64,000 nt of DNA, from assembly GCF_050250835.1 (NCBI RefSeq), contig NZ_JBFWNX010000019.1:6549-70548 (forward strand), given 5' to 3'. Position 1 is the stretch's first letter; every line of letters begins with the position of its first letter. The position numbers were made by a program, and so were the translations under genes. Under the pieces are notes generated by a model. The model saw only the letters and a program-made list of their open reading frames with translations, was not told where the DNA came from and searched no databases. This document shows, piece by piece, positions 10,309 through 38,798 of this stretch. This DNA comes from Hydrogenophaga sp. GTDB taxonomy: Bacteria; Pseudomonadota; Gammaproteobacteria; Burkholderiales; Burkholderiaceae_C.

Positions 10309-10535
10309 ACATTTTTCACTCCTGTGAGCGGGCGGCAGAACTCATGTCCCAGGCACTGGACGAACCCCTGGACCTGGCCGACCAGATGCGGCTGCGCATC
10401 CACCTCAAGATGTGCGGCAACTGCCAGGAGGTGGAGAAGCAGATGGCCACGCTTCACGCGCTGGCACCTCAGCTGGGGCTGCTCGATCTGGACATGAGCG
10501 ACGAACGCGAGCCGCCCGTGTCGAACACACCTTGA
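10305..10535 (+). CDS. zf-HC2 (ZAS) anti-sigma factor 1
   Basis: ATGA overlap with the sigma stop; C...HLKMCGNC. Confidence 0.85.
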   Translation: MNIFHSCERAAELMSQALDEPLDLADQMRLRIHLKMCGNCQEVEKQMATLHALAPQLGLLDLDMSDEREPPVSNTP

Positions 10536-11996: not shown

Positions 11997-12229
11997 GGGT
12001 GCTTGCTTTCGTGGTTCTGGGTGTTTGCGGTGCCAGGTTCTTCGATCACCTCGTCCAGGCGCTCTGAATAGGCCTTCATGGCCTTGCGTAGAAAAGGCAC
12101 CTGCAAGCTGAAGTTCTTGCAGCCGTCGCACATCATCAGGTGCAGGTTGAGCGACATCTTCTCGACAACCGAGAGCTTGCGCTCCTGGGATTCGGACACC
12201 AGGCGGGTCACTTCGCGGCAATTCAGCAT
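11993..12229 (-). CDS. zf-HC2 anti-sigma factor 2
   Basis: MLNCREVT...HLMMCDGC. Confidence 0.85.
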   Translation of the reverse strand: MLNCREVTRLVSESQERKLSVVEKMSLNLHLMMCDGCKNFSLQVPFLRKAMKAYSERLDEVIEEPGTANTQNHESKHP

Positions 12230-12861
12230 GTTGCACCTCCCCGGGCAAACCAGCGGTCTTCCAGACACTCCCGCAGACGCAGGCGCGCACGGTGCAGCAT
12301 CACATTGAGGTTGGTCGGGGTGATGCCCACCTCGCTGCAGATCTCGCGCGACTCCAGGCCCACGTATTCACGCATCATGAACACCTTGGCTTGTTGGCCT
12401 GGCAGCCCCTCCAGGCACAGCTCGAACACCTTCCAGAACTGCTTGTCGTGCAGGGTTTCGGTCGGATTGCCCCAGGTCGCGGGGCGCTCGTCTGCCTCCC
12501 ACATGCCCCGGCCATTGAACAGCTCGGAGAGGTCGGCCTCTTCGTCGGCATCGCCCACCGGCTGGTGGATCGAAACCTCGCGCTGCCGCTGGCGCAGCCG
12601 CAGGATGTCGGTGATCTTGTTCTTCAGGATAGCGAAAACCCAGGTCTTGAGACTGGCCTTGCCAGCGTAGGCCGCGGTGTTCCTGAAAGCACCCATCAGG
12701 GCCTCCTGCACCGCGTCTTCGGCCAGTTGCGGGTCCCCCAGCTGAAGAGAAGCGAACTTGACCATCTTGCCCCGCAGCGCGCTCAGCTCGGCCGGATCAA
12801 TCTCCTGAGCCTGAGACGCGCCGTCCTGCACATCGGCTGCCTTTGTCTTGCTGGCGCTCAT
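12223..12861 (-). CDS. ECF sigma factor 2 (TIGR02943-like)
   Basis: AEDAVQEAL, TWVFAILKNKITD, VFMMREYVGLESREIC, LHRARLRLRECL. Confidence 0.9.
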   Translation of the reverse strand: MSASKTKAADVQDGASQAQEIDPAELSALRGKMVKFASLQLGDPQLAEDAVQEALMGAFRNTAAYAGKASLKTWVFAILKNKITDILRLRQRQREVSIHQPVGDADEEADLSELFNGRGMWEADERPATWGNPTETLHDKQFWKVFELCLEGLPGQQAKVFMMREYVGLESREICSEVGITPTNLNVMLHRARLRLRECLEDRWFARGGATC

Positions 12862-13094
12862 GGTGCAGCCTTGTTCGACAGTTGATTGCGCGCTGCGCTG
12901 TAACTGGACACCGCGTAGGGCACCAGGAAATTCAGTAACACGTGTCCCCAGGCGATGGGTCCGCCCGAGAAAAACGCCTCGCCCTGGTTGATCAGGTTGA
13001 GCACACAGCCCACGACCAGCGAAACACGCAGCGCGCCCACCACGATGGGCCGTGAAAACACCGTGCCTAAAAACCTTTGCATCAACGGCTCCAT
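12858..13094 (-). CDS. NrtS-like small membrane protein (start 13094 or 13082)
   Basis: ALRVSLVVGCVLNLINQG and NFLVPYAVSSY motifs; stop overlaps the sigma 2 start. Confidence 0.7.
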   Translation of the reverse strand: MEPLMQRFLGTVFSRPIVVGALRVSLVVGCVLNLINQGEAFFSGGPIAWGHVLLNFLVPYAVSSYSAARNQLSNKAAP

Positions 13095-13244
13095 ATGTAG
13101 GGTGGTGTCTGACGCCCTGTACAGGCGCGCAGACGCTGGCCGCGATTCTCGTACAGAACGCCCGGCGTCCGGGCGCAGCGCACAGCGGCGTCCACCGAAA
13201 TAGCTTGCAACCCATACCCGAACTCCATGTGTGTTGACAGACTT

Positions 13245-13341: not shown

Positions 13342-13369
13342 TGTAAGGATCGCCCAAACGGAGGCGACT
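13342..13369 (+). promoter_or_regulatory. ECF promoter variant A (TGTAAG-N17-CGACT) for bufABCD
   Basis: TGTAAG 13342-13347, CGACT 13365-13369. Confidence 0.8.
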
Positions 13370-25065: not shown

Positions 25066-27348
25066 ATGCAAGCCTCCGAACAACCCATCCTGCGCGACCT
25101 GGTCCTGGTCGGCGGTGGCCACAGCCACGTGGTCGTCTTGCGCATGCTGGCCATGCAGCCCGAGCCCGGCCTGCGCATCACGCTGATCTGCACCGACATC
25201 GACACGCCCTACTCCGGCATGCTGCCGGGCTATATCTCGGGCCACTACCGCTTTGACGATGTGCACATCGACCTGGGCCGCCTGGCGGCCTTCGCCGGGG
25301 CGCGCTTCATCCACGGCGAGGTGACAGGTCTGGACCGCGCCAACCAGCGCGTGCAGCTGCGTGACCGGCCTGCCGTGCCCTACGACCTGCTCTCCATCAA
25401 CACCGGCTCCACGCCCAACATGCGCCAGATCAAGGGCGCACAGGCGCACGCGGTGCCGGTCAAGCCCATCGCCCAGTTCAACCAGCGCTGGCTGCACCTG
25501 CTGGCGCGCGTGCGCGAGTTGCACCGCCGTTTCACGATCGCGGTCGTGGGCGGCGGTGCGGGCGGGGTGGAGCTGGTGCTGTCCATGCAGTACCGGCTGC
25601 GCAACGAGCTGCAGAAACTCGGCCGCAACCCCGACCTGCTGCACTTTGTGCTGCTCACGGCGGGCGACACCCTGCTGCCGACACACAACCCCGGGGTCCG
25701 TGCCCGATTTGTGCGCGTGCTCAAGGAGCGCCATGTGGCCGTGCACACCCGTGCGGAAGTGAATCAGGTCTCGCCCGGCTGCCTGCACACACAGGACGGC
25801 CGCACCTTCGACGCCGATGAAACGATGTGGGTCACCCAGGCCGGCGGACCGGCCTGGCTGCAAAGTACCGGCCTGGCGCTGGACGAACACGGCTTCATCC
25901 AGGTCAACGACCGGCTCCAGACGCTGGACGACCCGAAGATCTTCGCCGCGGGCGACGTGGCCTCGTTCAGCCGCCGTCCGCTGGAAAAGGCCGGTGTGTT
26001 CGCGGTGCGCATGGGCCCGCCGCTGGTGAAAAACCTGCGCCTGGCCTTGCGTGGCCAGCCGCTGGTGGTCTACCACCCTCAACGCAGCTGGCTGGCGCTG
26101 ATCTCCACCGGCGACCGCTACGCCGTGGCCTCGCGCGGCTGGCTCGGCTTTGCTGGCGCCTGGGTCTGGACCTGGAAGGACAGCATCGACCGCCGCTTCA
26201 TGCGCAAATTCACCGAGCTGCCCGCCATGGCGCCCGGTACCGCGGCATCGGCCGCACCGGCCAGCCTCGCGCTCAGCGCCGAAGAATCGCGCCAGGCCAT
26301 CTCGGCCATCGCCATGCGCTGCGGCGGCTGCGGCGCCAAGGTGGGTGCCAGCATCCTGAGCCGCGCGCTGGGCAGCCTGCAGCCGGTCGAGCGCGACGAC
26401 GTGCTGATCGGTCTGCACGCCCCCGACGACGCCGCCGTGGTGCGCGTGCCGCCGGGCAAGGCGATGGTGCACACGGTGGACTTCTTCCGCAGCTTCATCG
26501 ACGACCCCTACCTGTTCGGCAAGGTCGCGGCCAACCACGCCCTGGGCGACATCTTCGCCATGGGCGCCGAGCCCCAGTCCGCCACCGCCGTCGCCAACGT
26601 GCCGCCGGGCCTGGAAGCCAAGGTCGAAGACCTGCTGTTGCAGATGATGACCGGCGCGGTCGAGGTGCTCAACGCCGCCGGTTGCGCCCTGGTCGGCGGC
26701 CACACCGGCGAAGGCCGCGAGCTGGCACTGGGCTTCGCCATCAACGGCCTGATCGACGACAGCATGGAAGGCGTCCTGCGCAAGGGTGGCATGTTGCCCG
26801 GTGACGTGCTGCTGCTGACCAAACCCATCGGCACCGGCACCCTGTTCGCCGCCCACGCGCGGCATTTCCCCAAAGGCCGCTGGATCGATGCGGCGCTGAC
26901 ATCGATGGTCGTGTCCAACCAGGCCGGCGCTCAGATTCTGCGGGCGCACGGCGCCACCGCCTGCACCGACCTGACCGGCTTCGGCTTGCTCGGGCATCTG
27001 GTGGAAATGACGCGCCCCTCGGGCGTGGACGCCGAACTGCAGCTGAGCGCCCTGCCCTTGCTGGACGGCGCCGTGGAATGTGTGCAGGCCGGCATCGTCA
27101 GCTCGCTGCAGCCGGCCAATGTGCGGCTGCGCCGCGCCTTGCGCAACGCCGACGCCTTTGTGAACGACCCGCGCTACCCGCTGCTGTTCGACCCGCAGAC
27201 GGCCGGTGGACTGCTGGCCAGCGTGCCGGCCGACCGGGCGGCCGACTGCATCCGGGCCCTCAAGGCCGCGGGCTACCCGCAGACCGCCGCCATCGGCCGC
27301 ATCAGCGGTGCGTCGGACGCGCTGGAGCCCGTGGTGCTGACGCCCTGA
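25066..27348 (+). CDS. selD: FAD-dependent oxidoreductase-selenophosphate synthetase fusion
   Basis: N-terminal GGGHSH, YSGMLPG, GGGAGG; C-terminal RCGGCGAK, DDAAV, HTVDFF, ACTDLTGFGLLGH, DPQTAGGLL. Confidence 0.9.
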   Translation: MQASEQPILRDLVLVGGGHSHVVVLRMLAMQPEPGLRITLICTDIDTPYSGMLPGYISGHYRFDDVHIDLGRLAAFAGARFIHGEVTGLDRANQRVQLRDRPAVPYDLLSINTGSTPNMRQIKGAQAHAVPVKPIAQFNQRWLHLLARVRELHRRFTIAVVGGGAGGVELVLSMQYRLRNELQKLGRNPDLLHFVLLTAGDTLLPTHNPGVRARFVRVLKERHVAVHTRAEVNQVSPGCLHTQDGRTFDADETMWVTQAGGPAWLQSTGLALDEHGFIQVNDRLQTLDDPKIFAAGDVASFSRRPLEKAGVFAVRMGPPLVKNLRLALRGQPLVVYHPQRSWLALISTGDRYAVASRGWLGFAGAWVWTWKDSIDRRFMRKFTELPAMAPGTAASAAPASLALSAEESRQAISAIAMRCGGCGAKVGASILSRALGSLQPVERDDVLIGLHAPDDAAVVRVPPGKAMVHTVDFFRSFIDDPYLFGKVAANHALGDIFAMGAEPQSATAVANVPPGLEAKVEDLLLQMMTGAVEVLNAAGCALVGGHTGEGRELALGFAINGLIDDSMEGVLRKGGMLPGDVLLLTKPIGTGTLFAAHARHFPKGRWIDAALTSMVVSNQAGAQILRAHGATACTDLTGFGLLGHLVEMTRPSGVDAELQLSALPLLDGAVECVQAGIVSSLQPANVRLRRALRNADAFVNDPRYPLLFDPQTAGGLLASVPADRAADCIRALKAAGYPQTAAIGRISGASDALEPVVLTP

Positions 27349-27383: not shown

Positions 27384-27411
27384 TGTAAGGACCCGGGACA
27401 TCGCAGCGACT
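27384..27411 (+). promoter_or_regulatory. ECF promoter variant A (TGTAAG-N17-CGACT) for the TVP38-reductase operon
   Basis: TGTAAG 27384-27389, CGACT 27407-27411. Confidence 0.8.
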
Positions 27412-27468
27412 GAGGTTCAAGTCGGCAGCACATCGTTGCCAGATTTCGCCCCCAAGAACCACGTCCCC

Positions 27469-29619
27469 ATGAAACGAATCCTGATCCTTGCCACCGTCGT
27501 GCTGCTGGTGGCCGCCTATTTCGGGCTGGGGCTGAACCGGTACCTGACCCTCGCCGCCGTGCAGGAGCGCCTGGGGGAATTTGAAGCCATGCGTCAGGCG
27601 GCCCCTGTCGCCACGGCGCTGGGCTTCTTTGGCCTGTATGTGCTGGCCACCGCCTTGTCCCTGCCCGGCGCGGTCATCCTCACGCTGGCGGCGGGCGCCC
27701 TGTTCGGCTTGGTGGCCGGCACGCTGATCGTCTCGTTCGCCTCCAGCGTGGGCGCCACGCTGGCGTTTCTGGCCTCGCGCCACCTGCTGCGCGACGGCGT
27801 GCAGGCGCGCTTTGGCAACCGGCTCAAGGCCATCAACGACGGCATGGCCCAAGACGGCGCGCTGTACCTGTTCACGCTGCGCCTGATTCCGGTGTTCCCG
27901 TTTTTCCTGGTCAACCTGCTCATGGGCCTGACCCCGATCCGCACCGGCACCTATTACGCGGTCAGCCAGCTGGGCATGCTCGCGGGCACCCTGGTCTACG
28001 TCAACGCCGGCACGCAGCTCGGCCAACTCAACAGCCTCTCGGGCATCCTCTCGCCCGGCGTCCTGCTTTCTTTTGTCCTGCTCGGAGTGTTTCCCATGAT
28101 CGCCAAGTCCGCCCTCGGTTTTCTGCAACGTCGCCGGGTGTATGCCAAGTGGCAGCGCCCCAAGACCTTTGACCGCAACCTGGTGGTCATCGGTGGCGGC
28201 GCGGCGGGTCTGGTCACTTCTTACATCGCGGCGGCCGTCAAAGCCAAGGTCACGCTGGTCGAGGCGCACAAGATGGGCGGCGACTGCCTGAACTACGGCT
28301 GCGTGCCCAGCAAGGCGCTGATCAAGTCGGCCAAGCTGGCCACCCAGATGCGCCGCGCCGACCACTACGGCCTGGAGGCCGCCACCCCCGCCTTCAGCTT
28401 CAGGCAGGTGATGGCGCGGGTGCACAAGGTCATCAGCGAGGTGGCGCCACACGACAGCGTGGAGCGCTACACCGGGCTGGGCGTGGAGGTATTGCAGGGC
28501 CGCGCCCGCATCGTCGATCCCTGGACGGTCGAGATCGCGCTCAACGGCGGCGGCACCCAGCGCCTGACCACGCGCAGCATCGTCATCGCCGCCGGTGCCC
28601 GCCCCTTCGTGCCGCCGCTGCCCGGCCTGGACGATGTGGGCTACGTCACCAGCGACACGCTGTGGGACGAGTTCGCCCAACTTGACGCGCCCCCGGCCCG
28701 CCTGGTGGTGCTGGGCGGTGGACCGATCGGCTGCGAGCTGGCGCAGAGCTTTGCGCGCCTGGGCTCGCAGGTGACCCAGGTGGAAATGGCGCCGCGCATC
28801 ATGATCCGGGAAGACGAAGAGGTCTCGGAACTGGCGCGTGACTCGCTGGTGCGCGACGGTGTGGATGTGCTCACCGGCCACAAGGCGCTGCGCTGCGAGC
28901 GCGAGGGCGAACGCAAATTCATCGTGGTGGAGCACCAGGGCCAGGAAAAGCGCATCGAGTTCGACGCGCTGCTGTGCGCGGTCGGCCGCGTGGCGCGGCT
29001 GCAGGGCTACGGTCTGGAAGAGCTGGGCATCCCCACGCAGCGCACGGTGGTGGTCAACGAATACCTCGAAACGCTGTACCCCAACATTTTTGCCGCGGGC
29101 GACGTGGCCGGGCCGTTCCAGTTCACCCACACGGCCGGGCACCAGGCCTGGTACGCCGCCGTCAACGCCCTGTTCGGCAGCTTCAAGAAATTCAAGGTCG
29201 ATTATTCGGTGATCCCCTGGGCCACGTTCATCGAGCCCGAGGTGGCGCGTGTGGGCCTGAACGAACAGGACGCGAAGGAAAAGAAGATCCTTTACGAGGT
29301 CACGAAATACGGCATCGACGACCTGGACCGCGCCATCGCCGACGGCTCTGCGCACGGCTTCGTCAAGGTGCTGACCGTACCGGGCAAAGACCGCATTCTG
29401 GGCGTGACCATCGTGGGCGAACATGCCGGCGACCTGCTGGCCGAGTTCGTGCTGGCCATGAAACACAGCCTGGGATTGAACAAGATCCTGGGCACCATCC
29501 ACACCTACCCCACGCTGGCCGAGGCCAACAAATACGCCGCTGGGGAATGGAAACGCGCCCACGCGCCCCAGGGCGTGCTGGCCTGGCTGGGCCGCTACCA
29601 CGCCTGGCGCCGAGGCTGA
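27469..29619 (+). CDS. TVP38/SNARE-associated membrane domain fused to a pyridine nucleotide-disulfide oxidoreductase (MerA/LpdA-like)
   Basis: LFTLRLIPVFPF DedA/TVP38 motif; GGDCLNYGCVPSK; GGGPIG; no C-terminal CC. Confidence 0.9.
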   Translation: MKRILILATVVLLVAAYFGLGLNRYLTLAAVQERLGEFEAMRQAAPVATALGFFGLYVLATALSLPGAVILTLAAGALFGLVAGTLIVSFASSVGATLAFLASRHLLRDGVQARFGNRLKAINDGMAQDGALYLFTLRLIPVFPFFLVNLLMGLTPIRTGTYYAVSQLGMLAGTLVYVNAGTQLGQLNSLSGILSPGVLLSFVLLGVFPMIAKSALGFLQRRRVYAKWQRPKTFDRNLVVIGGGAAGLVTSYIAAAVKAKVTLVEAHKMGGDCLNYGCVPSKALIKSAKLATQMRRADHYGLEAATPAFSFRQVMARVHKVISEVAPHDSVERYTGLGVEVLQGRARIVDPWTVEIALNGGGTQRLTTRSIVIAAGARPFVPPLPGLDDVGYVTSDTLWDEFAQLDAPPARLVVLGGGPIGCELAQSFARLGSQVTQVEMAPRIMIREDEEVSELARDSLVRDGVDVLTGHKALRCEREGERKFIVVEHQGQEKRIEFDALLCAVGRVARLQGYGLEELGIPTQRTVVVNEYLETLYPNIFAAGDVAGPFQFTHTAGHQAWYAAVNALFGSFKKFKVDYSVIPWATFIEPEVARVGLNEQDAKEKKILYEVTKYGIDDLDRAIADGSAHGFVKVLTVPGKDRILGVTIVGEHAGDLLAEFVLAMKHSLGLNKILGTIHTYPTLAEANKYAAGEWKRAHAPQGVLAWLGRYHAWRRG

Positions 29620-29632
29620 AAGGAAAACCACC

Positions 29633-30679
29633 ATGGCCAAGACACCCGCCCCGCAGGTCCATCTGCAACTGCCCGACGGCCCTGAACGCGACGCCCTGCG
29701 CGCCGGTCTGCTGGCCCTGCAATGCATCCCGGTGAACCTGCCGCCGCCGGGTGCAGCGCTCACAGAGCAGCTGGAACACCTGGCGCAGGACCCCAGGGCG
29801 GTGGTGTTCCTGGACATCTCCAATGCCCTGCCCAGGGTCACTCACCGGTTCGACCGCATCCTCAAGACCTGGCCCCAGGCCCTGAAGGCCCGAACGGTGC
29901 TGACCCGGCTGGCCGCCGGGCACGTGAGCCCCGCCGACCGCACCTGGGTGCAGTCGCTGGGGTTTGCCGACCTGATCGCTTCGTTCGAAGACCACGCGCC
30001 TGCATCGCCCTTGCGGCGATCGCTGGACATGGTCGCGGCCACCGTGGGCTTGCCTGCGCTGGCGGCCGGGGACCTTGACCGCTACCTGCGCGCCGTCCCC
30101 ACCGCGCCGTCCAGCCTGTCGCCCCGCGCGCTCATCCGCGCTCGCACAGGACTTGAAGCCGAGGCGCTGGCGGACCTGCTGCAGTTCAAGCTCGACATCC
30201 GCGACCGCAGCTACCACCTCAAGAAGTACCCCGCCTGTTTTCTCGCGACCGAGGCGGTGGCCTGGATGGGCTCGCATTTCAAACTGGGGCGCGCGGAGGT
30301 GATCGAAGTTGGCGTGGCCTTGCAGACCCTGGGCCTGCTCTACCACGTAGCCCACGAACAGGCTTTTGCCGACGAGGACCTGTTCTTCCGGCTGCGCGCA
30401 CCGGCCCAGTTGCCCAACGTGAACCTGGGGCTGGTCCTGCAGACCCTGCGCGATCGATTGGTGGTGGTGGACCGCAGCTACCTCGGCAAGGACTACCCGA
30501 GCTGCTGGATCGGCCAAGAGGCGGTCGATGCGCTCTGCGCCAAACGCAACATCACGCGCCATGAGAGCCAGCTGATCCTGCACCGGCTGATGCAGTTCGG
30601 GTGCTTTGAACACGTTGTCGGCGAACATGGTTTCATCGACGGCAACTTCTTCTACCGGTTCAACGAAGGCCTGGCCTGA
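29633..30679 (+). CDS. Protein with two DEP domains and a degenerate receiver-like N-terminus
   Basis: IRDRSYHLKKYPACFLATEAVAW...LYHV..EQAF.DEDLFFRL and VVDRSYLGKDYPSCWIGQEAVD...FEHV..EHGFIDGNFFYRF. Confidence 0.8.
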   Translation: MAKTPAPQVHLQLPDGPERDALRAGLLALQCIPVNLPPPGAALTEQLEHLAQDPRAVVFLDISNALPRVTHRFDRILKTWPQALKARTVLTRLAAGHVSPADRTWVQSLGFADLIASFEDHAPASPLRRSLDMVAATVGLPALAAGDLDRYLRAVPTAPSSLSPRALIRARTGLEAEALADLLQFKLDIRDRSYHLKKYPACFLATEAVAWMGSHFKLGRAEVIEVGVALQTLGLLYHVAHEQAFADEDLFFRLRAPAQLPNVNLGLVLQTLRDRLVVVDRSYLGKDYPSCWIGQEAVDALCAKRNITRHESQLILHRLMQFGCFEHVVGEHGFIDGNFFYRFNEGLA

Positions 30680-30696
30680 ACCGACATCACGCACCG

Positions 30697-31371
30697 ATGC
30701 GCTGTTCCATCATCGTTCCCATGCTCAACGAAGCGCAGGGCTTGCCTCGCCTGCTGGCGCGGCTGCGCGCGCTAGAGCGCCAGGGATGCGAGGTGCTGAT
30801 CGTGGACGGCGGCAGCGACGACGGCGGTGCTGAGCGGGCTGCGCAGGCTGGGTTTCGGGTGCTGTCGTCGCCGCGGGGGCGCGCCCGGCAAATGAACCAG
30901 GGCGCCGCACACGCCACAGGCGACGTGCTGCTGTTCCTGCACGCCGACACTCAACTGCCTGACGGCGCCCTTGTCACCCTCCGCCGAGCACTGCAGCGGT
31001 CCGGCGCGCCCTGGGGCCGGTTCGACGTGGTCATCGAGGGCCGCCACCCCATGCTGCGCGTGGTGGCCTGGCTGATGAACCTGCGCTCGCGCTGGACCGG
31101 CATCGCCACCGGCGACCAGGCGATCTTCGTCACACGCGAGGCCTTCGACACCGTGGGCGGCTACCCCGACCAGCCCCTGATGGAGGACATCGAACTGTCC
31201 AGCCGCCTGCTCCATCGCGCCCGCCCGGTGTGCATTCGCGACCGTGTGCAGACCTCGGGGCGCCGCTGGGAAAGCAGGGGCGTCTGGCGCACCGTGCTGC
31301 TGATGTGGCAACTGCGCTGGGCCTACTGGCGTGGCGCACCGGCCGTGCAGCTGGCACAACGTTACCGGTGA
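30697..31371 (+). CDS. GT2 glycosyltransferase (TIGR04283-like)
   Basis: IIVPMLNEA, VDGGS.D, GRARQMN.GA, FLHADT, TGDQAIFV, LMEDIE, TSGRRW. Confidence 0.9.
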   Translation: MRCSIIVPMLNEAQGLPRLLARLRALERQGCEVLIVDGGSDDGGAERAAQAGFRVLSSPRGRARQMNQGAAHATGDVLLFLHADTQLPDGALVTLRRALQRSGAPWGRFDVVIEGRHPMLRVVAWLMNLRSRWTGIATGDQAIFVTREAFDTVGGYPDQPLMEDIELSSRLLHRARPVCIRDRVQTSGRRWESRGVWRTVLLMWQLRWAYWRGAPAVQLAQRYR

Positions 31372-31378
31372 CCGCCTC

Positions 31379-32008
31379 ATGGCCGATGAACCCCGCATCG
31401 TCATCTTCGCCAAGGCACCCGTGGCGGGCCTGGCAAAGACCCGGCTGATCCCGGCGCTGGGTGCACAGCGGGCGGCCCGACTCGCTGCCAAGATGCTGAA
31501 CCACGCGGTGGAACAGGCCCTGGCCAGCGAGGTCGGTCCGGTGGAGCTGTGCGTGACGCCAGCGCCGCAAGACCCGATGTGGGCCGGGCGGTTGCCCAGG
31601 CATGCAGCGTTGACCTTCAGTGACCAGGGCGATGGCGATCTGGGCGAGCGCATGGCGCGGGCCGCACGGCGCACGCTGGAGGCCGGTCGGCCGGTGCTGC
31701 TGATGGGAACCGACTGCCCCGCCCTCACCGCAGAGCGCCTGCGCTCCGCCAGCGAGGCCCTGATGACGAGCGATGCCGTCATGATCCCGGCAACCGATGG
31801 CGGCTATGTGCTGCTGGGACTGCGACGTTTTGCCGTCAGCCTGTTCCATGACATCGCATGGAGCACCGAGCACGTGGCAGCAGCCACGCGAGATCGGCTT
31901 TGCGCCCTGGGTTGGCCCTTGAACGAAAAGGCACCGCTACACGACATCGACGAGCCCGATGACCTGCGTTGGCTCCCGACCGACTGGGACGGCGTTAGTC
32001 GGGTCTGA
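31379..32008 (+). CDS. TIGR04282/DUF2064 CofC-like nucleotidyltransferase-fold protein
   Basis: IFAKAP..G.AKTRL, QGDGDLGERM, GTDCP, PATDGGYVLLG, WST, DIDEPDD. Confidence 0.88.
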   Translation: MADEPRIVIFAKAPVAGLAKTRLIPALGAQRAARLAAKMLNHAVEQALASEVGPVELCVTPAPQDPMWAGRLPRHAALTFSDQGDGDLGERMARAARRTLEAGRPVLLMGTDCPALTAERLRSASEALMTSDAVMIPATDGGYVLLGLRRFAVSLFHDIAWSTEHVAAATRDRLCALGWPLNEKAPLHDIDEPDDLRWLPTDWDGVSRV

Positions 32009-32606
32009 ACACCTGCATGCCCGTGGCGATGCGCGTGAGGATCGTGAGCGCGCACAAGGCGGAAAACCCATAGGCCAACACACTGAACGCTTCAGGCCAC
32101 AGGCACATCAGCACGAACACCGTGATGGTTTCTGTGCTCTCGGAGAGCCCCCCCAGGTAGTAGATGCCCTTGCCAGCGTACGCGACGCTTGACAGCCCTC
32201 TTTGAGCGGCCAGCACCGCAAAAGCCAGAAAACTGCTGCCCGTACCGACGAACGAAAACAGCAACACAGTGGAAGCGAGGGCATGCTGCTCTGGCTTGGC
32301 GAGCGCGAACGCCATCGGAATGGACGCATAGAAAAGAAAATCCAGGGCGATGTCGAGGAACGCGCCTCGGTCCGTGGGCTGTGTCAATCGGGCCATGGTG
32401 CCGTCCAGCCCATCGGCAAGGCGATTCAGAAAGATCGTGATCAAGGCCCACTGAGACATCCCCAGAGCGATCAACGGCACTGAAAGCAGCCCGATCACAA
32501 AGCCCACCCAAGTGAGGTGATCGGCCTTCAATCCCCAGTTCAACAGCCGCAAGGCAACGGCTTGCAGCGGGGATTTGAGTCGCTGGTTGAGCGTTGCGTC
32601 AAACAT
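31995..32606 (-). CDS. ynjF: CDP-alcohol phosphatidyltransferase family (YnjF-like)
   Basis: DGLDGTMAR...GAFLDIALD signature. Confidence 0.88.
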   Translation of the reverse strand: MFDATLNQRLKSPLQAVALRLLNWGLKADHLTWVGFVIGLLSVPLIALGMSQWALITIFLNRLADGLDGTMARLTQPTDRGAFLDIALDFLFYASIPMAFALAKPEQHALASTVLLFSFVGTGSSFLAFAVLAAQRGLSSVAYAGKGIYYLGGLSESTETITVFVLMCLWPEAFSVLAYGFSALCALTILTRIATGMQVFRPD

Positions 32607-33246
32607 GCTGGGCCTGCCACTGGTGAATGTCCATGACCCGCCCACCCTGAGGCACATCGCCTGGGTCGTGGGTGACCAACAGGGTAGGAATGCCTTGACG
32701 CGCGATTTGCTCGAACACCAGCTCGCGGAACTGCACACGCAAACTGGCGTCGAGCTTGGAAAATGGTTCGTCCAGCAGCAGCGCACAAGGCTCGGCCAGC
32801 AGCGCCCGCATCAAACTCACACGGGCGCGCTGCCCGCCCGACAATGTGGCGGGGTCGCGGTCGTGGAATCCGGCCAGACCGATGTCCTGCAACGTCTGCT
32901 CCACCCGGGCGCGCCGCGCGGCAGCGCTACCCACCGCGCCCGGCAAGGCAAAGGCCAGGTTCTGCCCCACGCTCAGGTGCGGAAACAGCAGGTCGTCCTG
33001 GAACAGGATGCCGATGCCCCGCGATTCCACCGGCAGGCCATCGCGCCGCTGGCCGTCCAGCCACAGCTCGCCACTGGCCTGGAAAGCGGGGTCGAGATCG
33101 CCCACCAGCCAGTTCAGCAAGGTGGATTTGCCCGAGCCCGAGGCGCCGGTGATGGTCGCCACGGCACCAGCCTCCACCCGCAGGTTCAGGTTCGTGACCA
33201 GCGCCAGGCGGCCCTGCGCAATGGTGAGGTTCTTGATGTCCAGCAT
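32599..33246 (-). CDS. ynjD: ABC transporter ATPase (YnjD-like)
   Basis: GASGSGKS, LSGGQ, LLDEPF. Confidence 0.88.
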   Translation of the reverse strand: MLDIKNLTIAQGRLALVTNLNLRVEAGAVATITGASGSGKSTLLNWLVGDLDPAFQASGELWLDGQRRDGLPVESRGIGILFQDDLLFPHLSVGQNLAFALPGAVGSAAARRARVEQTLQDIGLAGFHDRDPATLSGGQRARVSLMRALLAEPCALLLDEPFSKLDASLRVQFRELVFEQIARQGIPTLLVTHDPGDVPQGGRVMDIHQWQAQHV

Positions 33247-33247
33247 G

Positions 33248-34915
33248 TCAGCGAAGTCCTTTGCGGCAACGACCCGCCCATTGGGCCATCAGCGCAGCGA
33301 GCCCGAAACCCAGCAGCGGCAAGGCGATCTGCAGCAGCGCCTGCACCGCCAGCACGCGGCGGTTGCCGCCGGCGCTCAGGCCCACCGCCTCGGTCGTGAC
33401 CGTCACAAACCGACCACCGCCCGCAAACAGCGTGGGCAGGTACTGCGCCACGCTGACGGCAAAGCCGACCGCCAGCGCGGCCAGGATGGGCTTGATCAGC
33501 ATCGGCCACTTCACGCGCAGACAGGCCCCCAGGGGGGACTGCCCGAGCGCGCGCGCGGTGGTCATGAGGCGGCGGTCAAAGGCGCGGTAGGGGCCGACCA
33601 GCGTGAGCACCATGTACGGCAGCACCCACAGCAGGTGGCTCCAGACCAGGCCGGCGGCGGTGCCGTCGCCCTGCAGGCGCAGCAGCGCGGCGTACTGCGC
33701 CGCCACCAGAGGCAGCGCGGGAATGATCAGCGGCACATACAGCACGGCGTTGAAGCGCTGCGGCCCCCACTCCAGCCAGACCAGGGTGGCCGGCAGGCAC
33801 AGCAGCGTGGCGGCAGCCGCCAGCCACAGCGTGGTCCAGAACGGTGCCCAGTCGGCCTGCATCCAGGTGCGCAGCGACAAGGCGTCGGGCCACAGTGCCG
33901 GGAAGAACCAGGTGTCGGCCAGCGACCACAGCACCAGCACCGCCACCACCGCATAGCCCACCAGATACAGGGGCTGGTGCAGGCCCAGCCGCGACGCTGT
34001 TGCCGCTGGCTTTCGTTCGCCCGCCGGGTAGGCCGCGCGCCGCGCGATCTGCCGCCAGGCCCACCGCGCACCACCGGCGATCAGCAGGAACAGCCCCAGC
34101 AGCACCAGCGAAGCCGCCGCCCCTTTGGCCTGCGTGGCCGCATCGGGGTCGGTCAGCCACTGCCAGACCAGCACGGCCAGTGTGGGTGGCGTGCTCGGCC
34201 CCAGGATCACCGCCATGTCCACCACCGACAGGCCATAGGCGAGCACCGCCGCCAGCGGCCAGCCCAGGCGCGGCAGCAGCTGGGGCCACAGCACATGACG
34301 CCAAGTCTGTGCGCGGTTGTAGCCCAGGGATCGGGCCACCACCATGTGCCGCTGCACCGTCTGCTCGCCCAGCACCGCCACCAGCACCCAGAGCAGGAAC
34401 CAGCTTTCTTTCAAGCCCAGCGCCAAGGCCAGACTCAGCGCAAAGGGGTCCTGCACCGTGGTCCATGGCGGCGGCTCCAGCCAGCCCAGCAACGGCGCCA
34501 CCGCCCGCACCAGCCAGCCGGACGGCGAGAGAAGGAAAAAAAGCCCGACGGCAAACGCCGCGTGGGGCACCGACAGCAGCAAGGGCAGCCGCCGCTGCAG
34601 CGCCAGCCAGCGCGGCCCCGGATACAGCGCGGTGGCCAGCCCGGCCGCCAGTCCCACCCCCAGCGCAGTGCCCAGCCCGGCAGACAGCAGGGTCGCGCGC
34701 AAGGCCTGTGGCCACTGGGTGTCGGCCCACAGCGACTGCCAGACCGCCAGGTCCAGGGCCGGCACGAGCGCCCAGTACAGGCCCGGCAGCATGGGGCCGA
34801 GGATCAGCGCCACCGGCAGCGCCGCCAGCCAGACCGGCGACAAACGCCGTCGGGCTCCCGAAGAGCCGGGTGGCGAGCTGCGCCGGATCAGCGGGAACCG
34901 TAGCGCTTGAGCCAC
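33248..34915 (-). CDS. ynjC: ABC transporter permease (YnjC-like; start uncertain)
   Basis: Two permease repeats, PHAAFAVG, AVSVAQYLPTLFAGGGR. Confidence 0.85.
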   Translation of the reverse strand: MAQALRFPLIRRSSPPGSSGARRRLSPVWLAALPVALILGPMLPGLYWALVPALDLAVWQSLWADTQWPQALRATLLSAGLGTALGVGLAAGLATALYPGPRWLALQRRLPLLLSVPHAAFAVGLFFLLSPSGWLVRAVAPLLGWLEPPPWTTVQDPFALSLALALGLKESWFLLWVLVAVLGEQTVQRHMVVARSLGYNRAQTWRHVLWPQLLPRLGWPLAAVLAYGLSVVDMAVILGPSTPPTLAVLVWQWLTDPDAATQAKGAAASLVLLGLFLLIAGGARWAWRQIARRAAYPAGERKPAATASRLGLHQPLYLVGYAVVAVLVLWSLADTWFFPALWPDALSLRTWMQADWAPFWTTLWLAAAATLLCLPATLVWLEWGPQRFNAVLYVPLIIPALPLVAAQYAALLRLQGDGTAAGLVWSHLLWVLPYMVLTLVGPYRAFDRRLMTTARALGQSPLGACLRVKWPMLIKPILAALAVGFAVSVAQYLPTLFAGGGRFVTVTTEAVGLSAGGNRRVLAVQALLQIALPLLGFGLAALMAQWAGRCRKGLR

Positions 34916-36063
34916 TCGGTCTCCAGCGCCTCCACCCAGCTGGCGTGGGGCTCGGCCAGCGTGGGCACGGCCTCGGCCAGTGCACCGGGCGCGGTCTTGC
35001 GCATGGCGGCCTGGGTGGCGGACGGCAGCTTGTTCACGTCCAGCACGCTGCCATCACCCCAGACGGTGATGTCGGCCTTGCGGGCCTGGGCCTCGGGCGA
35101 CAGCAGGAAATTGGCCACCACCTGAGCGCCCGCCGCCGCCTTGGCGTTGACGGGGATGCCGACGAAGTGCACGTTGCCAATGGTGCCGCCGGTGAAGCCG
35201 AAGCTGTAGGCGGTGGCGGGCAGCTGGCGCGTGGCAATCAGGTTGGCGGCCTCGTTGGGGTTGAAGGTCAGCGAGAGCTTGAGCTCGCCGTCGGCCAGCA
35301 TGCGGTGCATCTCGGCCGCACTGGCGGGAAAGGCCTTGCCACCGCGCCAGAGCTGCGGGTGCAACTGGTCCAGGTACGCCCACAGCGGCGCGGTCGAGGT
35401 GTTGAAGCTGGCGGGTGTGACAGGCACCTGCAGCACCTTGCGATCCGGGGCCAGCTCGATCAGCGCCTGTTTGACGAAGGTGGTGCCGTGAAAGTCGGTC
35501 GGCTTGGGGTAGCTCACCCGACCCGCGTTGGCCTTGGCAAAGGCCAGCAAGTCTGCGGCCGAACGGGGCGGCACGGGTGTCTTGGCCTTGTCGGCGATGA
35601 AGGTCAGCTGCGCGGTGCCCCAGGGCGCCTCATAGCCGTCGGTGGGCACCGAGAAATCGCTGCGCACCGGCTTGTTCAGGTCGACCGCGCCCCAGTTGGG
35701 CAATGCTTCGGCCCAGGGACCGAACAGCAAGCCGCCTTGCTTGAGGTTGCGGAAGTTCTCGCCGTTGATCCACATCAGGTCGATCGAACCATCGGTGCGG
35801 CGCCCGGCTGCCACCTCGGTCTGCACCCGCTTGACCACCTCGGCCGTGTCCGTCACCTTGACGTGACGAAGCTCCACGCCATAGCGGCTCTTGACCTGCT
35901 GCGCCACCCAGCCGATGTAGGCATTGGTTGCCTCACTACCGCCCCAGGCGTTGAAAAACACAGTCTGGCCTTTGGCATCGGCCTCGGTCTTGGCCCAGTC
36001 GGCGCTCGCGGCCAAAGGGAACGACAGGCTGAGGGCCAGGGTGGTCAGGGGAAACCATTTCAT
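34888..36063 (-). CDS. ynjB: ABC transporter substrate-binding protein (YnjB-like)
   Basis: Signal peptide; GQTVFFNAWGG, DLMWINGENF, EAPWG, GNVHFVGIP. Confidence 0.88.
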   Translation of the reverse strand: MKWFPLTTLALSLSFPLAASADWAKTEADAKGQTVFFNAWGGSEATNAYIGWVAQQVKSRYGVELRHVKVTDTAEVVKRVQTEVAAGRRTDGSIDLMWINGENFRNLKQGGLLFGPWAEALPNWGAVDLNKPVRSDFSVPTDGYEAPWGTAQLTFIADKAKTPVPPRSAADLLAFAKANAGRVSYPKPTDFHGTTFVKQALIELAPDRKVLQVPVTPASFNTSTAPLWAYLDQLHPQLWRGGKAFPASAAEMHRMLADGELKLSLTFNPNEAANLIATRQLPATAYSFGFTGGTIGNVHFVGIPVNAKAAAGAQVVANFLLSPEAQARKADITVWGDGSVLDVNKLPSATQAAMRKTAPGALAEAVPTLAEPHASWVEALETEWLKRYGSR

Positions 36064-36100
36064 GCGTGAACGCTCCGTATAAGAGGATGGGAAAGCCCAT

Positions 36101-36128
36101 AGTCGGATGAGCACCCCAAATGCTTACA
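36101..36128 (-). promoter_or_regulatory. ECF promoter variant A (TGTAAG-N17-CGACT) for ynjBCDF
   Basis: Plus strand AGTCG 36101-36105, CTTACA 36123-36128. Confidence 0.8.
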
Positions 36129-36142
36129 GGCAAGGGCACGCT

Positions 36143-37207
36143 TTAGCCGGCCAGCGCTCCCTGCAGCGCATGAAATTCGGTCAGCATGCGTTCGATGGTT
36201 CGCGGTTTGAGGTAGTCGTTCACCCTGCCCCGCACATGAACGATCAGCGCATCCTCGCTGTGCTGCGTGGACCAGTCTTCGCCATCGCCACCGCGGCCCT
36301 GGTGGTTGGCCGACTCGGCCAGCCATTTGGCACACCAGGTCACCGACCACAACCACATCAACTCACGCAGCGGCACCAGCGCGCCCCGGCAAGGCCCCGC
36401 GATGCCCTCCCCGACCGCCTGCGCCCAGGTTACGTACGCTCGCGCCACAGCGTCGATGGACAGCTCAAAAGCGGCCTCACGGTCCCAGGTCGTTGACGTG
36501 TACAGACTGGCGTGCGCCAGGTCGAGCGGTGGGTAGCTGTAGCGCAGCTTCTCCAGATCCACCAGCACCGCCTTGCCCGTCGATGTGATCAGAAAATTGC
36601 CCGGGTGGGCGTCGAAGGTGATCAGCCGCTGCGGACAAAGCTGTACCAGAGGCGCCATGCGCGGCGTCACATCCTGCAACCGCGCCTTCAAGACCCGAGC
36701 CGATTCGGCGGGAACGGCCGAATGGTCCAGATACCGGGCCTGGGCTTCGATCAACGCGACGAGACCTGCCAGCGGGTCCGACTCATCCAGCAGGGGCGCG
36801 CGGTCTGGTGGTGGCGGCACTGGCAACGCATGGATCGCAGCAAGGGCCTGCATGATGGACCCCAGATGCTCCGGTTGGCTGGCGGGAGTGCCGATGATTT
36901 CTTCGACCAGCAAGGCACCCCGCGGCAGATGCTCAGACGGGCCCAGCACCGCTTCCAGCTGCGGCACGTGCCCGGAGGGCTCTGCACGCCGAAAGCAGGT
37001 GCTCTGGTACAGCAGGTTGTCCTGGGCGACCAGCGCCATCTGGCTCTGTTTGGGGATTCGGGCCAGCAGACCCGTGCCTTTCAAACGCACATGCCAGTGG
37101 GCCAGACCTTTGTCCGGCAGGGCCTCCAGAACGACAGGCCTGGGAAACCGACCCGACAGCTGCTTGTCCAGCAGGGTCAGTATTGAGTCAAATTGCATGA
37201 AGCTCAT
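36143..37207 (-). CDS. APH/choline-kinase-like phosphotransferase
   Basis: LLARIPK (ATP Lys), ITFDAHPGNFL (Brenner-like), VLVDLEK. Confidence 0.8.
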   Translation of the reverse strand: MSFMQFDSILTLLDKQLSGRFPRPVVLEALPDKGLAHWHVRLKGTGLLARIPKQSQMALVAQDNLLYQSTCFRRAEPSGHVPQLEAVLGPSEHLPRGALLVEEIIGTPASQPEHLGSIMQALAAIHALPVPPPPDRAPLLDESDPLAGLVALIEAQARYLDHSAVPAESARVLKARLQDVTPRMAPLVQLCPQRLITFDAHPGNFLITSTGKAVLVDLEKLRYSYPPLDLAHASLYTSTTWDREAAFELSIDAVARAYVTWAQAVGEGIAGPCRGALVPLRELMWLWSVTWCAKWLAESANHQGRGGDGEDWSTQHSEDALIVHVRGRVNDYLKPRTIERMLTEFHALQGALAG

Positions 37208-37280: not shown

Positions 37281-38687
37281 CTACAAGTTCATGCCTTCTG
37301 CATCGTGCGCCGCTGCATCGATTTTCGCCTTGCCCAATACGATGACCTCCCTCGCGGATTCGCCGCGCATCCAACTGTCCAGCATGTCCGCCCACACTTG
37401 CATTAGGGCCCGCCGAGGCCCGGATAAGCGCGCATGGTTGTAGGCCGCAGCGACTTGGTCCTTCTTCTGGTGGGCCAGGCAGGCTTCGACCAGGGCTTCC
37501 GGGAAGAGCGCGTCGTTGAGCCGAGACGAGAATGTTCTGCGCAGGTCGTGCACTGACACTGGCAAGAACAGCTCCTGACTGGGTGTTCGATCCTTGTTGA
37601 TTCGATCCACCGAAGCGGCGATCGTTCGGTTCAGTGTGGCCTGGCTGATTGGCTCGGCGGAGTCATATCGGCCTGGGTGGACGAAGTTGCTTGAAGGAAA
37701 GCAGGTCCGAAGCGTTGTCAGGATGTCCAGGGCCTGTTCTGCCAGATACACCGTGTGCGGCTTGCCAGCCTTCATCCTCTCGGCGGGGATCACCCACTGT
37801 GCCCGCTCCCAGTCCACTTCCGCCCAGGTGGCTCCGATGAACTCTCCTTTGCGAACACCCGTCAGCAGCAAGAACCTGACCGCCAGTCGAAGTGTCGGCG
37901 CGGTGCCTGTCCTCTCCAGCGCGTCGAGCAAGGTCTTGATTTCGTGGCGGCTCAGATTGCGTTCGCGAGGGACAAAGGTCGCGTAGGCCTTCCGGGCGAG
38001 CGCTTCAGCCGGATTTGCGACATCGACGCCTTTGCCATTCGCGAACCGGTAAACCTGCAACACGAGTTCCCTGGCGTGCACAGCCGGGCCAGGGCCTCGC
38101 TCAGTTTTGACGCGGTCGAGCAACTCACCCAGCGCGACTGGCTTGATTTCATCCAGGTTCAGTTTTCCAAACGGGCCAGCCAGGATGCGGTCGTAGATCG
38201 AACGCCGTAACGCCAGCGTGCTGTCAGCGAGACGTTCGGCCCCGCTCTTGGCGTCGGACTTGAACTCGAAGTACCGTGTCGCCCAGCGCCCGAAGCTCAT
38301 GGCGTCCGCGACTTCGCTGCGCTGCTCGACCTTGGCCCGTGCGGGCGACCGCCCGGAACTGACATCGACACGCGCCCGAGCCAGCAGGAAGCGGGCTTCC
38401 TCCAGCGTCACATCCATGCCGTAGGCCAGATGAGACCGCTGGGCGTGACGGGCAACCGGTTCATGGCGACCAATGGTCAGCGTCTCGCGGCGGCCGCTCA
38501 ATCGATAGTCATAGCGGAAGGACCTGCTGCCACTGGGCGAGACGACGACGTAGAGACCGTTGCCTCCGTCGCTGACCTTGTAGGCCCGCTCGCCCGGCTT
38601 TAGTTCTCGCAGCTTGGCTTCCGTCAACCCGTGGCGTGTTTTCGCGCTCGCCAGCCCAACCCGCGCCCGTTCCATCAAGGTGTCCAT
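37281..38687 (-). CDS. P4-type tyrosine integrase with arm-binding domain (alternative start 38732)
   Basis: KVSDGGNGLYV.V...G.RSF arm domain; catalytic TGVR, HDLRR, LAH, AAY intact. Confidence 0.93.
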   Translation of the reverse strand: MDTLMERARVGLASAKTRHGLTEAKLRELKPGERAYKVSDGGNGLYVVVSPSGSRSFRYDYRLSGRRETLTIGRHEPVARHAQRSHLAYGMDVTLEEARFLLARARVDVSSGRSPARAKVEQRSEVADAMSFGRWATRYFEFKSDAKSGAERLADSTLALRRSIYDRILAGPFGKLNLDEIKPVALGELLDRVKTERGPGPAVHARELVLQVYRFANGKGVDVANPAEALARKAYATFVPRERNLSRHEIKTLLDALERTGTAPTLRLAVRFLLLTGVRKGEFIGATWAEVDWERAQWVIPAERMKAGKPHTVYLAEQALDILTTLRTCFPSSNFVHPGRYDSAEPISQATLNRTIAASVDRINKDRTPSQELFLPVSVHDLRRTFSSRLNDALFPEALVEACLAHQKKDQVAAAYNHARLSGPRRALMQVWADMLDSWMRGESAREVIVLGKAKIDAAAHDAEGMNL

Positions 38688-38722
38688 GAGATCTCCGATC
38701 CGTTGCTTGTCGCAGGACCGAA

Positions 38723-38798
38723 ATACCGTCATGGGGTCTGACGGTATCGCTGCAGGCCTGCAAGCTTAGGTGGCCGGATACCGTCAGGTCAACCGTCA
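38723..38798. repeat. Putative integrase arm-type sites (ATACCGTCA three times, one inverted, plus AACCGTCA)
   Basis: 38723-31 direct, 38739-47 inverted, 38778-86 direct, 38791-98 AACCGTCA. Confidence 0.6.

Follow-up and report, generated by a model that had tools for sequence, protein, structure and literature searches.

An ArsS-independent TIGR04283/TIGR04282 gene set linked by a small-molecule kinase to the ynj system in an island of Hydrogenophaga

The subject of this study is a pair of convergent operons at positions 27384-37207 of a 64,000-nucleotide stretch of DNA from Hydrogenophaga sp. (contig NZ_JBFWNX010000019.1; this whole stretch is called the window in the following). The plus-strand operon encodes a fusion of a VTT/DedA membrane domain with a flavoprotein disulfide reductase (VTT-flavoreductase), a DEP-domain protein, a family 2 glycosyltransferase (GT2) of the TIGR04283 type and a protein of the DUF2064/TIGR04282 family. 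The minus-strand run encodes a small-molecule kinase of the APH/choline-kinase fold, the ATP-binding cassette (ABC) importer YnjBCD and the CDP-alcohol phosphotransferase-like protein YnjF (Table 1). Taken together, these genes are an undescribed variant of a barely characterised cassette; the variant is independent of the radical S-adenosylmethionine (SAM) enzyme ArsS and is joined to the ynj system known from Escherichia coli. In our favoured explanation, which we give an even chance of being correct, the two operons form one linked system of two modules, a salvage-type cassette under an oxidant-type extracytoplasmic function (ECF) sigma factor. The observations on which this explanation is built are the identities of the genes, their co-location in several orders, the exclusion of ArsS and the conservation of motifs; from these we infer all of the biochemical steps, the direction in which the pathway runs and the signal that induces it. 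Import, phosphorylation, activation with a nucleoside diphosphate and transfer would be the simplest reading of such a gene set.

The kinase is the gene that ties the two operons together. Its relatives were collected by a scan at one genome per species, which gave 403 loci; all counts for kinase loci refer to the best 80 of them and to neighbours within 10 kb of the kinase. GT2/TIGR04282 or ynjB/C are present near the kinase in 73 of the 80 loci (GT2/TIGR04282 in 52, ynjB/C in 51, both in 30), and many of the loci that have neither are located on truncated contigs. VTT/flavoreductase genes are neighbours in 24 loci and ynjF in ten. The DEP gene is accessory, as it occurs in two loci only (L083 with 85% and L139 with 38% identity), in both cases beside the VTT-flavoreductase gene. 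At least five gene orders exist in all. That of the window, with kinase-ynjBCD(F) facing TIGR04282-GT2, is found in L083-L087, and a second one, VTT-flavoreductase / kinase-GT2-TIGR04282 ... ynjFDCB, in another copy within the host genome and in L105, L125, L142, L145 and L152. At least eight loci (L110, L113, L116, L119, L120, L130, L158 and L162) possess a single GT2-TIGR04282-ynjBCD-kinase operon. Next to these there are the order GT2-TIGR04282-kinase and, in Roseovarius and other Alphaproteobacteria, kinase-ynjBCD alone.

The other copy within the host genome (locus L058, contig C4, positions 292944-312916; called the C4 copy in the following) is a diverged paralogue of the whole set, 44-78% identical, in which the kinase has moved into the GT2 operon and the DEP gene is missing. 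The order of its genes is SelD, stand-alone TIGR03169, flavoreductase-VTT, kinase, fused GT2~TIGR04282, uppP, ynjFDCB, MNIO/DUF2063 and a third ECF sigma factor. The first-pass annotation had regarded the convergent operons as functionally linked, and this view is supported by the C4 paralogue as well as by the kinase family, which occurs almost only beside GT2/TIGR04282 and/or ynjBCD.

At the level of whole genomes, 20 kinase genomes were compared with a sample of 201 genomes of the host's class, one genome per family, using Fisher tests that ignore the kinship of the genomes and contain no correction for phylogeny. TIGR04282 exceeds its cut-off in 19 of the 20 kinase genomes versus 101 of the 201 class genomes (p = 7e-5, kinship ignored), and nine of the ten kinase genomes whose kinase locus has no TIGR04282 gene possess one elsewhere in the genome. 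YnjF was found in 9 of the 20 kinase genomes. YnjB, in turn, is present in ten of the 201 class genomes, and among these 201 genomes no co-occurrence of YnjB with TIGR04282 was found. The profiling that the first-pass annotation had proposed as a check gives a divided answer: where the kinase is present the families are linked, but in the class as a whole YnjB shows no correlation with TIGR04282. The latter weakens the idea of a general pathway built from six families.

The phylogenies indicate how many events stand behind these associations. In the TIGR04282 tree, the kinase-linked copies from Burkholderiales form one weakly supported group with short branches, nested in an ArsS-linked grade. 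It consists of two well-supported subclades, one with the window copy and one with the C4 copy. Since the TIGR04282 copies trace to few evolutionary events, the many kinase loci are not independent observations; they reflect a few switches of partner that were kept through long divergence and rearrangement. In the YnjB tree, the window copy belongs to the clade that contains E. coli. Kinase adjacency exists in this clade and in a second one, every member of which is kinase-linked. Locus L101 (NZ_JBDVNU010000017.1), labelled as a metagenome-assembled genome of Ilumatobacter, carries GT2-TIGR04282-kinase and nests among Burkholderiales (Rubrivivax/Piscinibacter) in the tree, which may be the result of mis-binning or of recent transfer.

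That TIGR04282 and TIGR04283 occur together with ArsS, as stated by the first-pass annotation, is true for the class of the host. We inspected forty 20-kb neighbourhoods of TIGR04282 genes from the class-wide sample. The TIGR04283 GT2 gene adjoins TIGR04282 in 36 of them, as it does in the window, and true ArsS (TIGR04167, 462 bits) in 32. ArsM-like methyltransferases are encoded in 13 of the 40 loci. About 16 have VTT and/or flavoreductase genes within 10 kb, and loci of the ArsS type commonly have DedA and flavoreductase genes close by. The kinase genomes differ with regard to ArsS. There is no ArsS in the host genome, where the best TIGR04167 match reaches 19.6 bits (cut-off 300), none in the 20 kinase genomes, and neither ArsS nor ArsM near the kinase in any of the 80 loci. 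With an ArsM-like representative as query, tblastn gave no match in the host genome at E <= 1e-15. It had also been noted earlier that no radical SAM gene is present in the window; this holds for the whole contig of the window and for the surroundings of the C4 copy, and the 12 PF04055 matches of the genome are located elsewhere. ArsS and the kinase are anti-correlated up to mutual exclusion.

In comparison with the ArsS "arsenosugar" cassette, the genes studied here show both a common core and a clear difference: the TIGR04283 and TIGR04282 proteins score above their cut-offs and are adjacent, sometimes fused, in both cases, whereas the kinase and the ABC importer, elsewhere also a nucleoside hydrolase, stand in the place of ArsS. 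ArsS is the only characterised member of that cassette, and the roles of the two transferases are suggested by the names of their families. ArsS adenosylates DMAs(III) to the 5'-modified adenosine DDMAA (PMC13598754). Radical SAM proteins of other types were observed in some kinase loci. An unnamed radical SAM/SPASM protein (CHRRCKHC) is encoded just upstream of kinase-ynjBCD in L128 (249-1346) and in eight other loci of the Roseovarius type; this protein is distinct from ArsS and has no fitting NCBIfam model. In L162 (1065-3182) and in five loci besides, an arrangement of some Burkholderiales, GT2-TIGR04282-ynjBCD-kinase operons are preceded by the gene for a radical SAM protein of the B12-binding type with weak PhpK/ArsL-like matches.

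Further information on the possible cargo comes from a nucleoside hydrolase of the IU_nuc_hydro family. Of the kinase loci, 28 encode it, most of them immediately behind kinase-GT2-TIGR04282 and others beside the kinase. The protein of L130 (11042-12139) is one example; it has the motif DTDAANEIDD and is distant from RihA, RihB and RihC. Since ArsS makes a 5'-modified adenosine, kinase loci are free of ArsS and nucleoside hydrolases are frequent in them, a salvage feed of the ribosyl or nucleoside type suggests itself, and a ribosyl- or nucleoside-type compound is the most likely cargo. The first of the two proposed modules, module A, would comprise YnjBCD, the kinase, TIGR04282 and TIGR04283. 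The importer would take up a small polar compound, which might then be phosphorylated by the kinase and linked to a nucleotide by the CofC/MobA-like TIGR04282 protein, before the soluble GT2 would pass the activated group to an acceptor. In most lineages, ArsS would produce the precursor, a 5'-modified adenosine, from SAM. In the host, it would be supplied by import and kinase instead, and in many relatives a nucleoside hydrolase would take part as well.

A pathway of this kind would have parallels. Salvage pairs of an APH-fold kinase and a nucleotidyltransferase, such as AmgK/MurU and LicA/LicC, bypass de novo synthesis, and MtnK-type ribose kinases serve salvage as well. Common to these systems and to the proposed one would be that a compound from import or recycling receives a phosphate from an enzyme of the APH/choline-kinase fold and is subsequently activated with a nucleotide. 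In contrast to them, the host kinase is at sequence level not a member of any of these families, and the putative nucleotidyltransferase is DUF2064/CofC-like rather than MurU- or LicC-like. The alignment of the kinase family exhibits the invariant motifs PKQSQ, FDAHPGNF and VDLEK, and the catalytic loop is intact. Searches by sequence and by profile found no relative of the kinase in the PDB. Its AlphaFold2 model (predicted local distance difference test score, pLDDT, 89) is closest in fold to 3dxq, a protein of the choline/ethanolamine-kinase family (template modelling score 0.59-0.69), and ChoK, EthK, APH(2''), YtaA and homoserine kinase II are further matches among the top 50 of Foldseek. 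A classification as an anomeric kinase like MtnK, NahK or AmgK was considered and rejected, as these 50 matches contain no specific signal of a sugar kinase; such enzymes serve here as an analogy only. The same kind of comparison was made for the binding protein YnjB (AlphaFold2 model, pLDDT 84), the nearest structures of which are the PhnS-like 4r6y, FutA/FbpA, PotD/F, TbpA and AfuA. There is no PDB relative of YnjB by sequence, and the profile search gives weak matches to PotD/SpuD only. Deduction of a ligand from the structure was given up, since the matches are too varied and only a class of ligands can be stated.

The VTT-flavoreductase gene at the head of the plus operon and the ynj genes of the minus strand have counterparts that are already united in E. 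coli, in the ydjXYZ-ynjABCD/ynjF cluster. In strain K-12 the order is ydjX (DedA), ydjY, ydjZ (DedA), ynjA, ynjB, ynjC, ynjD and ynjE, with ynjF in convergent orientation, and ydjXYZ-ynjABCD is a single operon activated by FNR (PMC3688515). YnjB, YnjC, YnjD and YnjF of the window are orthologous to the E. coli proteins (identities in Table 1), and the VTT domain shares 37% identity with YdjX and 30% with YdjZ. Both clusters include a DedA domain of the COG0398 type, an associated ynjF and partners that are active on thiols or sulfur. There are also significant differences. The E. coli cluster has no kinase, GT2 or TIGR04282, it has YdjY, the AhpD-like YnjA and the rhodanese YnjE, its DedA proteins have no reductase part, and it is activated by FNR, whereas the host copy has promoters of the ECF type. 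Fusion to a reductase is the commonest fusion within the COG0398 subfamily of DedA proteins (bioRxiv 10.1101/2023.01.04.522824).

These membrane and redox genes appear to constitute a module of their own. In one genome of the class sample (G101) a TIGR03169-like gene, VTT-flavoreductase and ynjBCDF form one operon. In the genome G149, which belongs to the same genus as the host, a P-type ATPase stands where kinase-GT2-TIGR04282 would be. The closest relatives of the island, L084-L087, have kept kinase-ynjBCD and TIGR04282-GT2 and lack YnjF and the DedA fusion. Since L084-L087 lack the module and E. coli and G149 possess it in the absence of module A, it is separable. This module B, common to the E. 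coli cluster as well, would consist of the DedA/VTT-flavoreductase and YnjF, often together with TIGR03169/SelD, and would probably carry out a lipid-linked or phospho-alcohol step and an NAD(P)H-driven reduction of a disulfide or selenosulfide. The first-pass annotation had placed the CDP-alcohol phosphotransferase at the end of the pathway. This assignment has to be abandoned for the system as a whole: a last step of the Kennedy/Lic type is not part of its core, because YnjF is present in only 9 of the 20 kinase genomes and ten of the 80 loci. In the host genome itself, a Kennedy-type ending through YnjF is possible. The P-type ATPase seen in G149, a cation ATPase of about 905 amino acids, recurs between VTT-flavoreductase/kinase and ynjF in L125 (4605-7340), L078 (4377-7094) and seven further loci.

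A common promoter motif connects the two operons on the level of regulation. The sequence TGTAAG-N17-CGACT occurs at six sites in the window, where 0.03 are expected from shuffles. One site precedes the VTT-flavoreductase operon and another lies between the kinase and ynjB; the other four are located upstream of thioredoxin/DsbD, SDR/patatin, a DUF692 (MNIO)/DUF2063 operon and the ECF sigma factor gene. If the second variant, TGTAAT/CGACC, is included, all nine exact TGTAA[GT]-N17-CGAC[TC] sites of the 4.26-Mb genome fall in the window (1147-36128), and with a spacing of N16-17 three more sites appear, by the paralogous C4 cluster. The motif is kept upstream of ynjB and of the DedA-flavoreductase gene in other genera, and it is also found upstream of the C4 paralogue of VTT-flavoreductase. 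In the 80 related loci the relaxed form TGTAA[GT]-N16-17-CGAC gave 40 sites, 20 of them directly upstream of ynjB (49 loci have ynjB); it precedes VTT-flavoreductase in 11 of the 25 related loci that have this gene, and 0.005 sites per gene start are expected by chance. Two earlier statements have to be modified in the light of these data. The promoters of both operons had been described as identical, which is correct for both hexamers and the spacing but not for the spacer sequences. Co-regulation of the operons had been proposed too, and ynjBCDF and the plus operon do share the motif, with the exception of the kinase, which lies upstream of it.

The sigma factor encoded at 9697-10308 together with its anti-sigma factor is the likely regulator of both operons, so that this ZAS-controlled ECF sigma factor of the island would drive ynjBCDF and the DedA-flavoreductase-DEP-GT2-TIGR04282 operon. 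It resembles SigE/MseR of Neisseria and RpoE2/HrsE of Haemophilus influenzae, which respond to HOCl and H2O2 (PMC7907618). In all of them an autoregulated ECF sigma factor is followed by a short HxxxCxxC anti-sigma factor, and the regulon includes a DUF692/DUF2063 operon. By analogy to these systems, thiol oxidation might be the inducing signal. They differ from the host in that its island carries two sigma/anti-sigma pairs and two promoter variants, next to a third ECF sigma factor on the chromosome near the C4 copy, and in that the host regulon includes ynjBCDF and the DedA-flavoreductase operon, which is unreported for those organisms. Another of the motif sites of the window is located at 13342-13369. 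After the second sigma/anti-sigma pair there is a gene for an AhpD-like peroxidase-related enzyme (TIGR01926; 11427-11996, minus strand); further AhpD-like proteins are YnjA in E. coli and TIGR04169 in ArsS clusters.

Several points weigh against the explanation that both operons form one linked system. The literature, searched in full text, contains next to nothing on what TIGR04282, TIGR04283, DUF2064, YnjB or YnjF do, and no experiment on any of these families in such a context. The role of TIGR04282 as a nucleotidyltransferase is putative and derived from its fold. The fold matches of the kinase are generic, with no anomeric sugar kinase among the top 50 of Foldseek, and those of YnjB span binders of iron, polyamines, phosphonates, thiamin, sugar phosphates and metal citrate. 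A nucleoside hydrolase is absent from the host genome at E <= 1e-3 and was therefore rejected as a part of the host's own set. The kinase has no ECF motif of its own upstream and is not driven by the promoter within the window. E. coli and G149 carry YnjBCD, YnjF and DedA without kinase, GT2 or TIGR04282, and in the class-wide sample YnjB and TIGR04282 are never adjacent outside the host genome, in addition to being uncorrelated. Finally, the TIGR04282 tree requires at least three switches of partner, i.e. few events behind many loci.

The same observations bear on the question whether there is a shared pathway at all, or whether a remnant of the arsenosugar type and a YnjBCDF importer were joined by assembly of the island and by common regulation. 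The missing correlation across the class would fit such a chance union, as would the nature of the region, an integrase-bounded island full of unrelated stress genes, and the fact that the overlap of the convergent 3' ends is not conserved, ynjD and TIGR04282 being separated by a gap of about 150 nt in L084-L087. We nevertheless consider it very unlikely, since GT2, TIGR04282, ynjBCD and the kinase are united in single operons in at least eight loci, the kinase joins either module in different lineages and is adjacent to ynjB in both major YnjB clades, and the chromosomal C4 paralogue holds the same set. A pathway of the Kennedy/Lic type is improbable for other reasons. An imported alcohol would be phosphorylated by the kinase, converted to a CDP-alcohol by TIGR04282 and transferred by YnjF onto diacylglycerol or a polyol, and DedA would scramble the product, a new phospholipid or polyol phosphate. 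This is in line with the choline and ethanolamine kinases as best fold matches of the kinase (at fold level only), the full CDP-alcohol phosphotransferase motif of YnjF, the translational coupling of ynjF to ynjD at both host loci, the lipid scramblases within the DedA superfamily and the presence of all three enzyme types in both copies of the host genome. However, YnjF is rare among kinase loci and kinase genomes, L084-L087 do without YnjF and the DedA fusion, and E. coli and G149 possess YnjF without kinase or TIGR04282. Moreover, TIGR04282 is CofC/MobA-like and not a cytidylyltransferase of the CCT/LicC type, and no role would be left for the invariably paired GT2.

This GT2 is central to a different possibility, in which it would load a sugar on undecaprenyl phosphate (UndP) and DedA would flip or recycle the carrier for a decoration of the envelope in times of stress. 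GT2 is weakly similar to ArnC, PpgS and AglJ, DedA proteins have been proposed as UndP flippases, VTT and/or flavoreductase genes are near the GT2/TIGR04282 pair in about 16 of the 40 class-wide loci, and uppP lies inside the C4 copy. The flippase proposal, however, refers to the COG0586 subfamily and not to the COG0398/YdjX type of the window, GT2 has no membrane segment, and no periplasmic transferase was seen. The uppP gene, which is single-copy, is adjacent only in the host genome and in one close relative, and we treat it as coincidental rather than as a clue to undecaprenyl. Such a polyprenyl-phosphate route appears quite improbable to us. A selenium-specific function is likewise unlikely; here the cluster and SelD/TIGR03169 would take up, reduce and conjugate selenium to a selenosugar, a seleno-ribosyl compound or a lipid, with reduced selenium delivered by the DedA-flavoreductase. 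The association of SelD with kinase genomes as such is real: of the 20 kinase genomes, 16 have SelD above its cut-off, versus 39 of the 201 class genomes (an enrichment that ignores kinship), and so do six of the ten YnjB genomes. SelD or TIGR03169, as a fusion or with TIGR03169 standing alone, adjoins the cluster at several places: the window, the C4 copy, G101, G149 and 14 of the 80 kinase loci. A rhodanese (YnjE) and an AhpD-like protein belong to the related cluster of E. coli. On the other hand, SelD is missing from the 10-kb surroundings in the majority of kinase loci and from four of the 20 kinase genomes altogether, and no enzyme of the cluster is known to use selenophosphate. SelA, SelB and tRNA-Sec are absent from the host genome, but a SelU homolog is present; SelD therefore has an ordinary use in the formation of tRNA selenouridine, and the assumption of an orphan SelD was rejected. 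There is only a small chance that the cluster, together with TIGR03169-SelD, makes from an imported precursor a ribosyl or glycosyl conjugate or a lipid that bears selenium, or another chalcogen or metalloid, and serves as an oxidant-induced protectant. Whether selenium, sulfur or arsenic is contained in the substrate is a matter of pure inference.

The gene models behind this comparison were obtained from an open reading frame (ORF) listing and Pfam/NCBIfam scans, followed by comparison to E. coli K-12 with tblastn (Table 1). All nine genes named by the first-pass annotation were recovered in this way, and the 14-bp overlap of the convergent 3' ends that it had reported is confirmed by the stop codons (TIGR04282, TGA at 32006-32008; ynjF, TAA at 31995-31997; overlap 31995-32008). 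As a conserved feature this overlap was rejected, because L084-L087 have no ynjF at this place. Since the intergenic gaps on the plus strand are as short as 13 nt, 17 nt and at most 8 nt, these genes form one operon. The reductase half of the VTT fusion is glutathione-reductase/Lpd-like; its redox centre reads CLNYGC and its dyad HTYPTLAE, and the C-terminal cysteine pair known from MerA is missing. No family matches the N-terminal part of the DEP protein (about 170 residues). The ORF of TIGR04282 is open from 31331, with the ATG at 31379 as the likely start; its product matches PDB entry 3cgx at 1e-16, and a fused homolog matches NTP_transf_3. Fusions of GT2 with TIGR04282 exist in about 16 loci as well as in the C4 copy. 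The start of ynjF overlaps the stop of ynjD by 8 nt; the gene is assigned to 31995-32606, since the long ORF aligns to E. coli YnjF only from residue 61. YnjF has the motif DGx2DGx2AR...Gx3Dx3D intact. For ynjB, the ECF -10 box overlaps the longer ORF; the start was therefore set at position 36063, where an ATG precedes the sequence for a signal peptide.

The region, in a window of about 66% G+C, is flanked by an integrase gene (37281-38732, minus strand) and guaB, with cusCBA-type efflux genes and the TIGR03169-SelD fusion upstream. The integrase gene is located directly upstream of the kinase gene on the same strand. ARAGORN detected no tRNA gene in positions 1-64000, so that within the window the island is not adjacent to a tRNA gene. 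The closest relatives of the genes come from Hydrogenophaga and other Comamonadaceae.

Table 1. Features of the two operons, their promoters and associated genes (positions refer to the window)
Feature	Position	Strand	Remarks
ECF sigma factor, TIGR02943 family	9697-10308	+	171 bits (cut-off 162); preceded by motif at 9607-9634
Short ZAS anti-sigma factor, HLKMCGNC	10266-10535	+	NF052368, 52.7 bits (cut-off 50)
Second sigma/anti-sigma pair	11993-13215	-	Island carries two pairs and two promoter variants
TIGR03169 (Nterm_to_SelD) oxidoreductase-SelD fusion	25066-27348	+	504 and 286 bits
ECF-type promoter motif	27384-27411	+	Upstream of VTT-flavoreductase operon
VTT/DedA (TVP38, COG0398-type)-flavoprotein disulfide reductase fusion	27469-29619	+	Pfam/NCBIfam; likely ATG 27469, stop 29619
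Two-DEP-domain protein	29633-30679	+	Pfam; DEP domains C-terminal
Soluble GT2, TIGR04283	30697-31371	+	285.8 bits (cut-off 182)
DUF2064/TIGR04282, CofC/MobA-like nucleotidyltransferase fold	31379-32008	+	200 bits (cut-off 134)
YnjF, CDP-alcohol phosphatidyltransferase family	31995-32606	-	PF01066; 55% identity to E. coli YnjF over 197 residues
YnjD, ABC ATPase	32599-33246	-	52% identity to E. coli YnjD (tblastn)
YnjC, fused double ABC permease	33248-34915	-	42% identity to E. coli YnjC
YnjB, periplasmic substrate-binding protein, cluster-D fold	34888-36063	-	NF008633, 539 bits; 58% identity to E. coli YnjB
ECF-type promoter motif	36101-36128	-	Between kinase and ynjB
APH/choline-kinase-fold small-molecule kinase	36143-37207	-	Pfam APH, 54 bits; no NCBIfam model

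The finding is of interest since roughly every second family sampled from the class has TIGR04282/TIGR04283, yet these are named after a single cyanobacterial pathway, and the cluster described here indicates that the transferase pair can run without ArsS. In addition, YnjBCD, YnjF and YdjX/YdjZ, which have been E. coli genes of unknown function for a long time, are tied to this transferase pair via one kinase family. The cluster points to a cargo of the ribosyl or nucleoside type and, through the ECF sigma factor that would sense thiol oxidation, to an inducing condition. If the cargo bears selenium, arsenic or sulfur, this would have a bearing on metalloid cycling and on bacterial antioxidant chemistry. 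If a selenium conjugate is indeed the product, it would mean that cells use selenophosphate in a way not described before, or that arsenosugars and arsenosugar phospholipids have a counterpart with selenium, and it would also provide a function for ydjXYZ-ynjABCD/ynjF of E. coli. At this stage, the cluster is a good lead for experiments.

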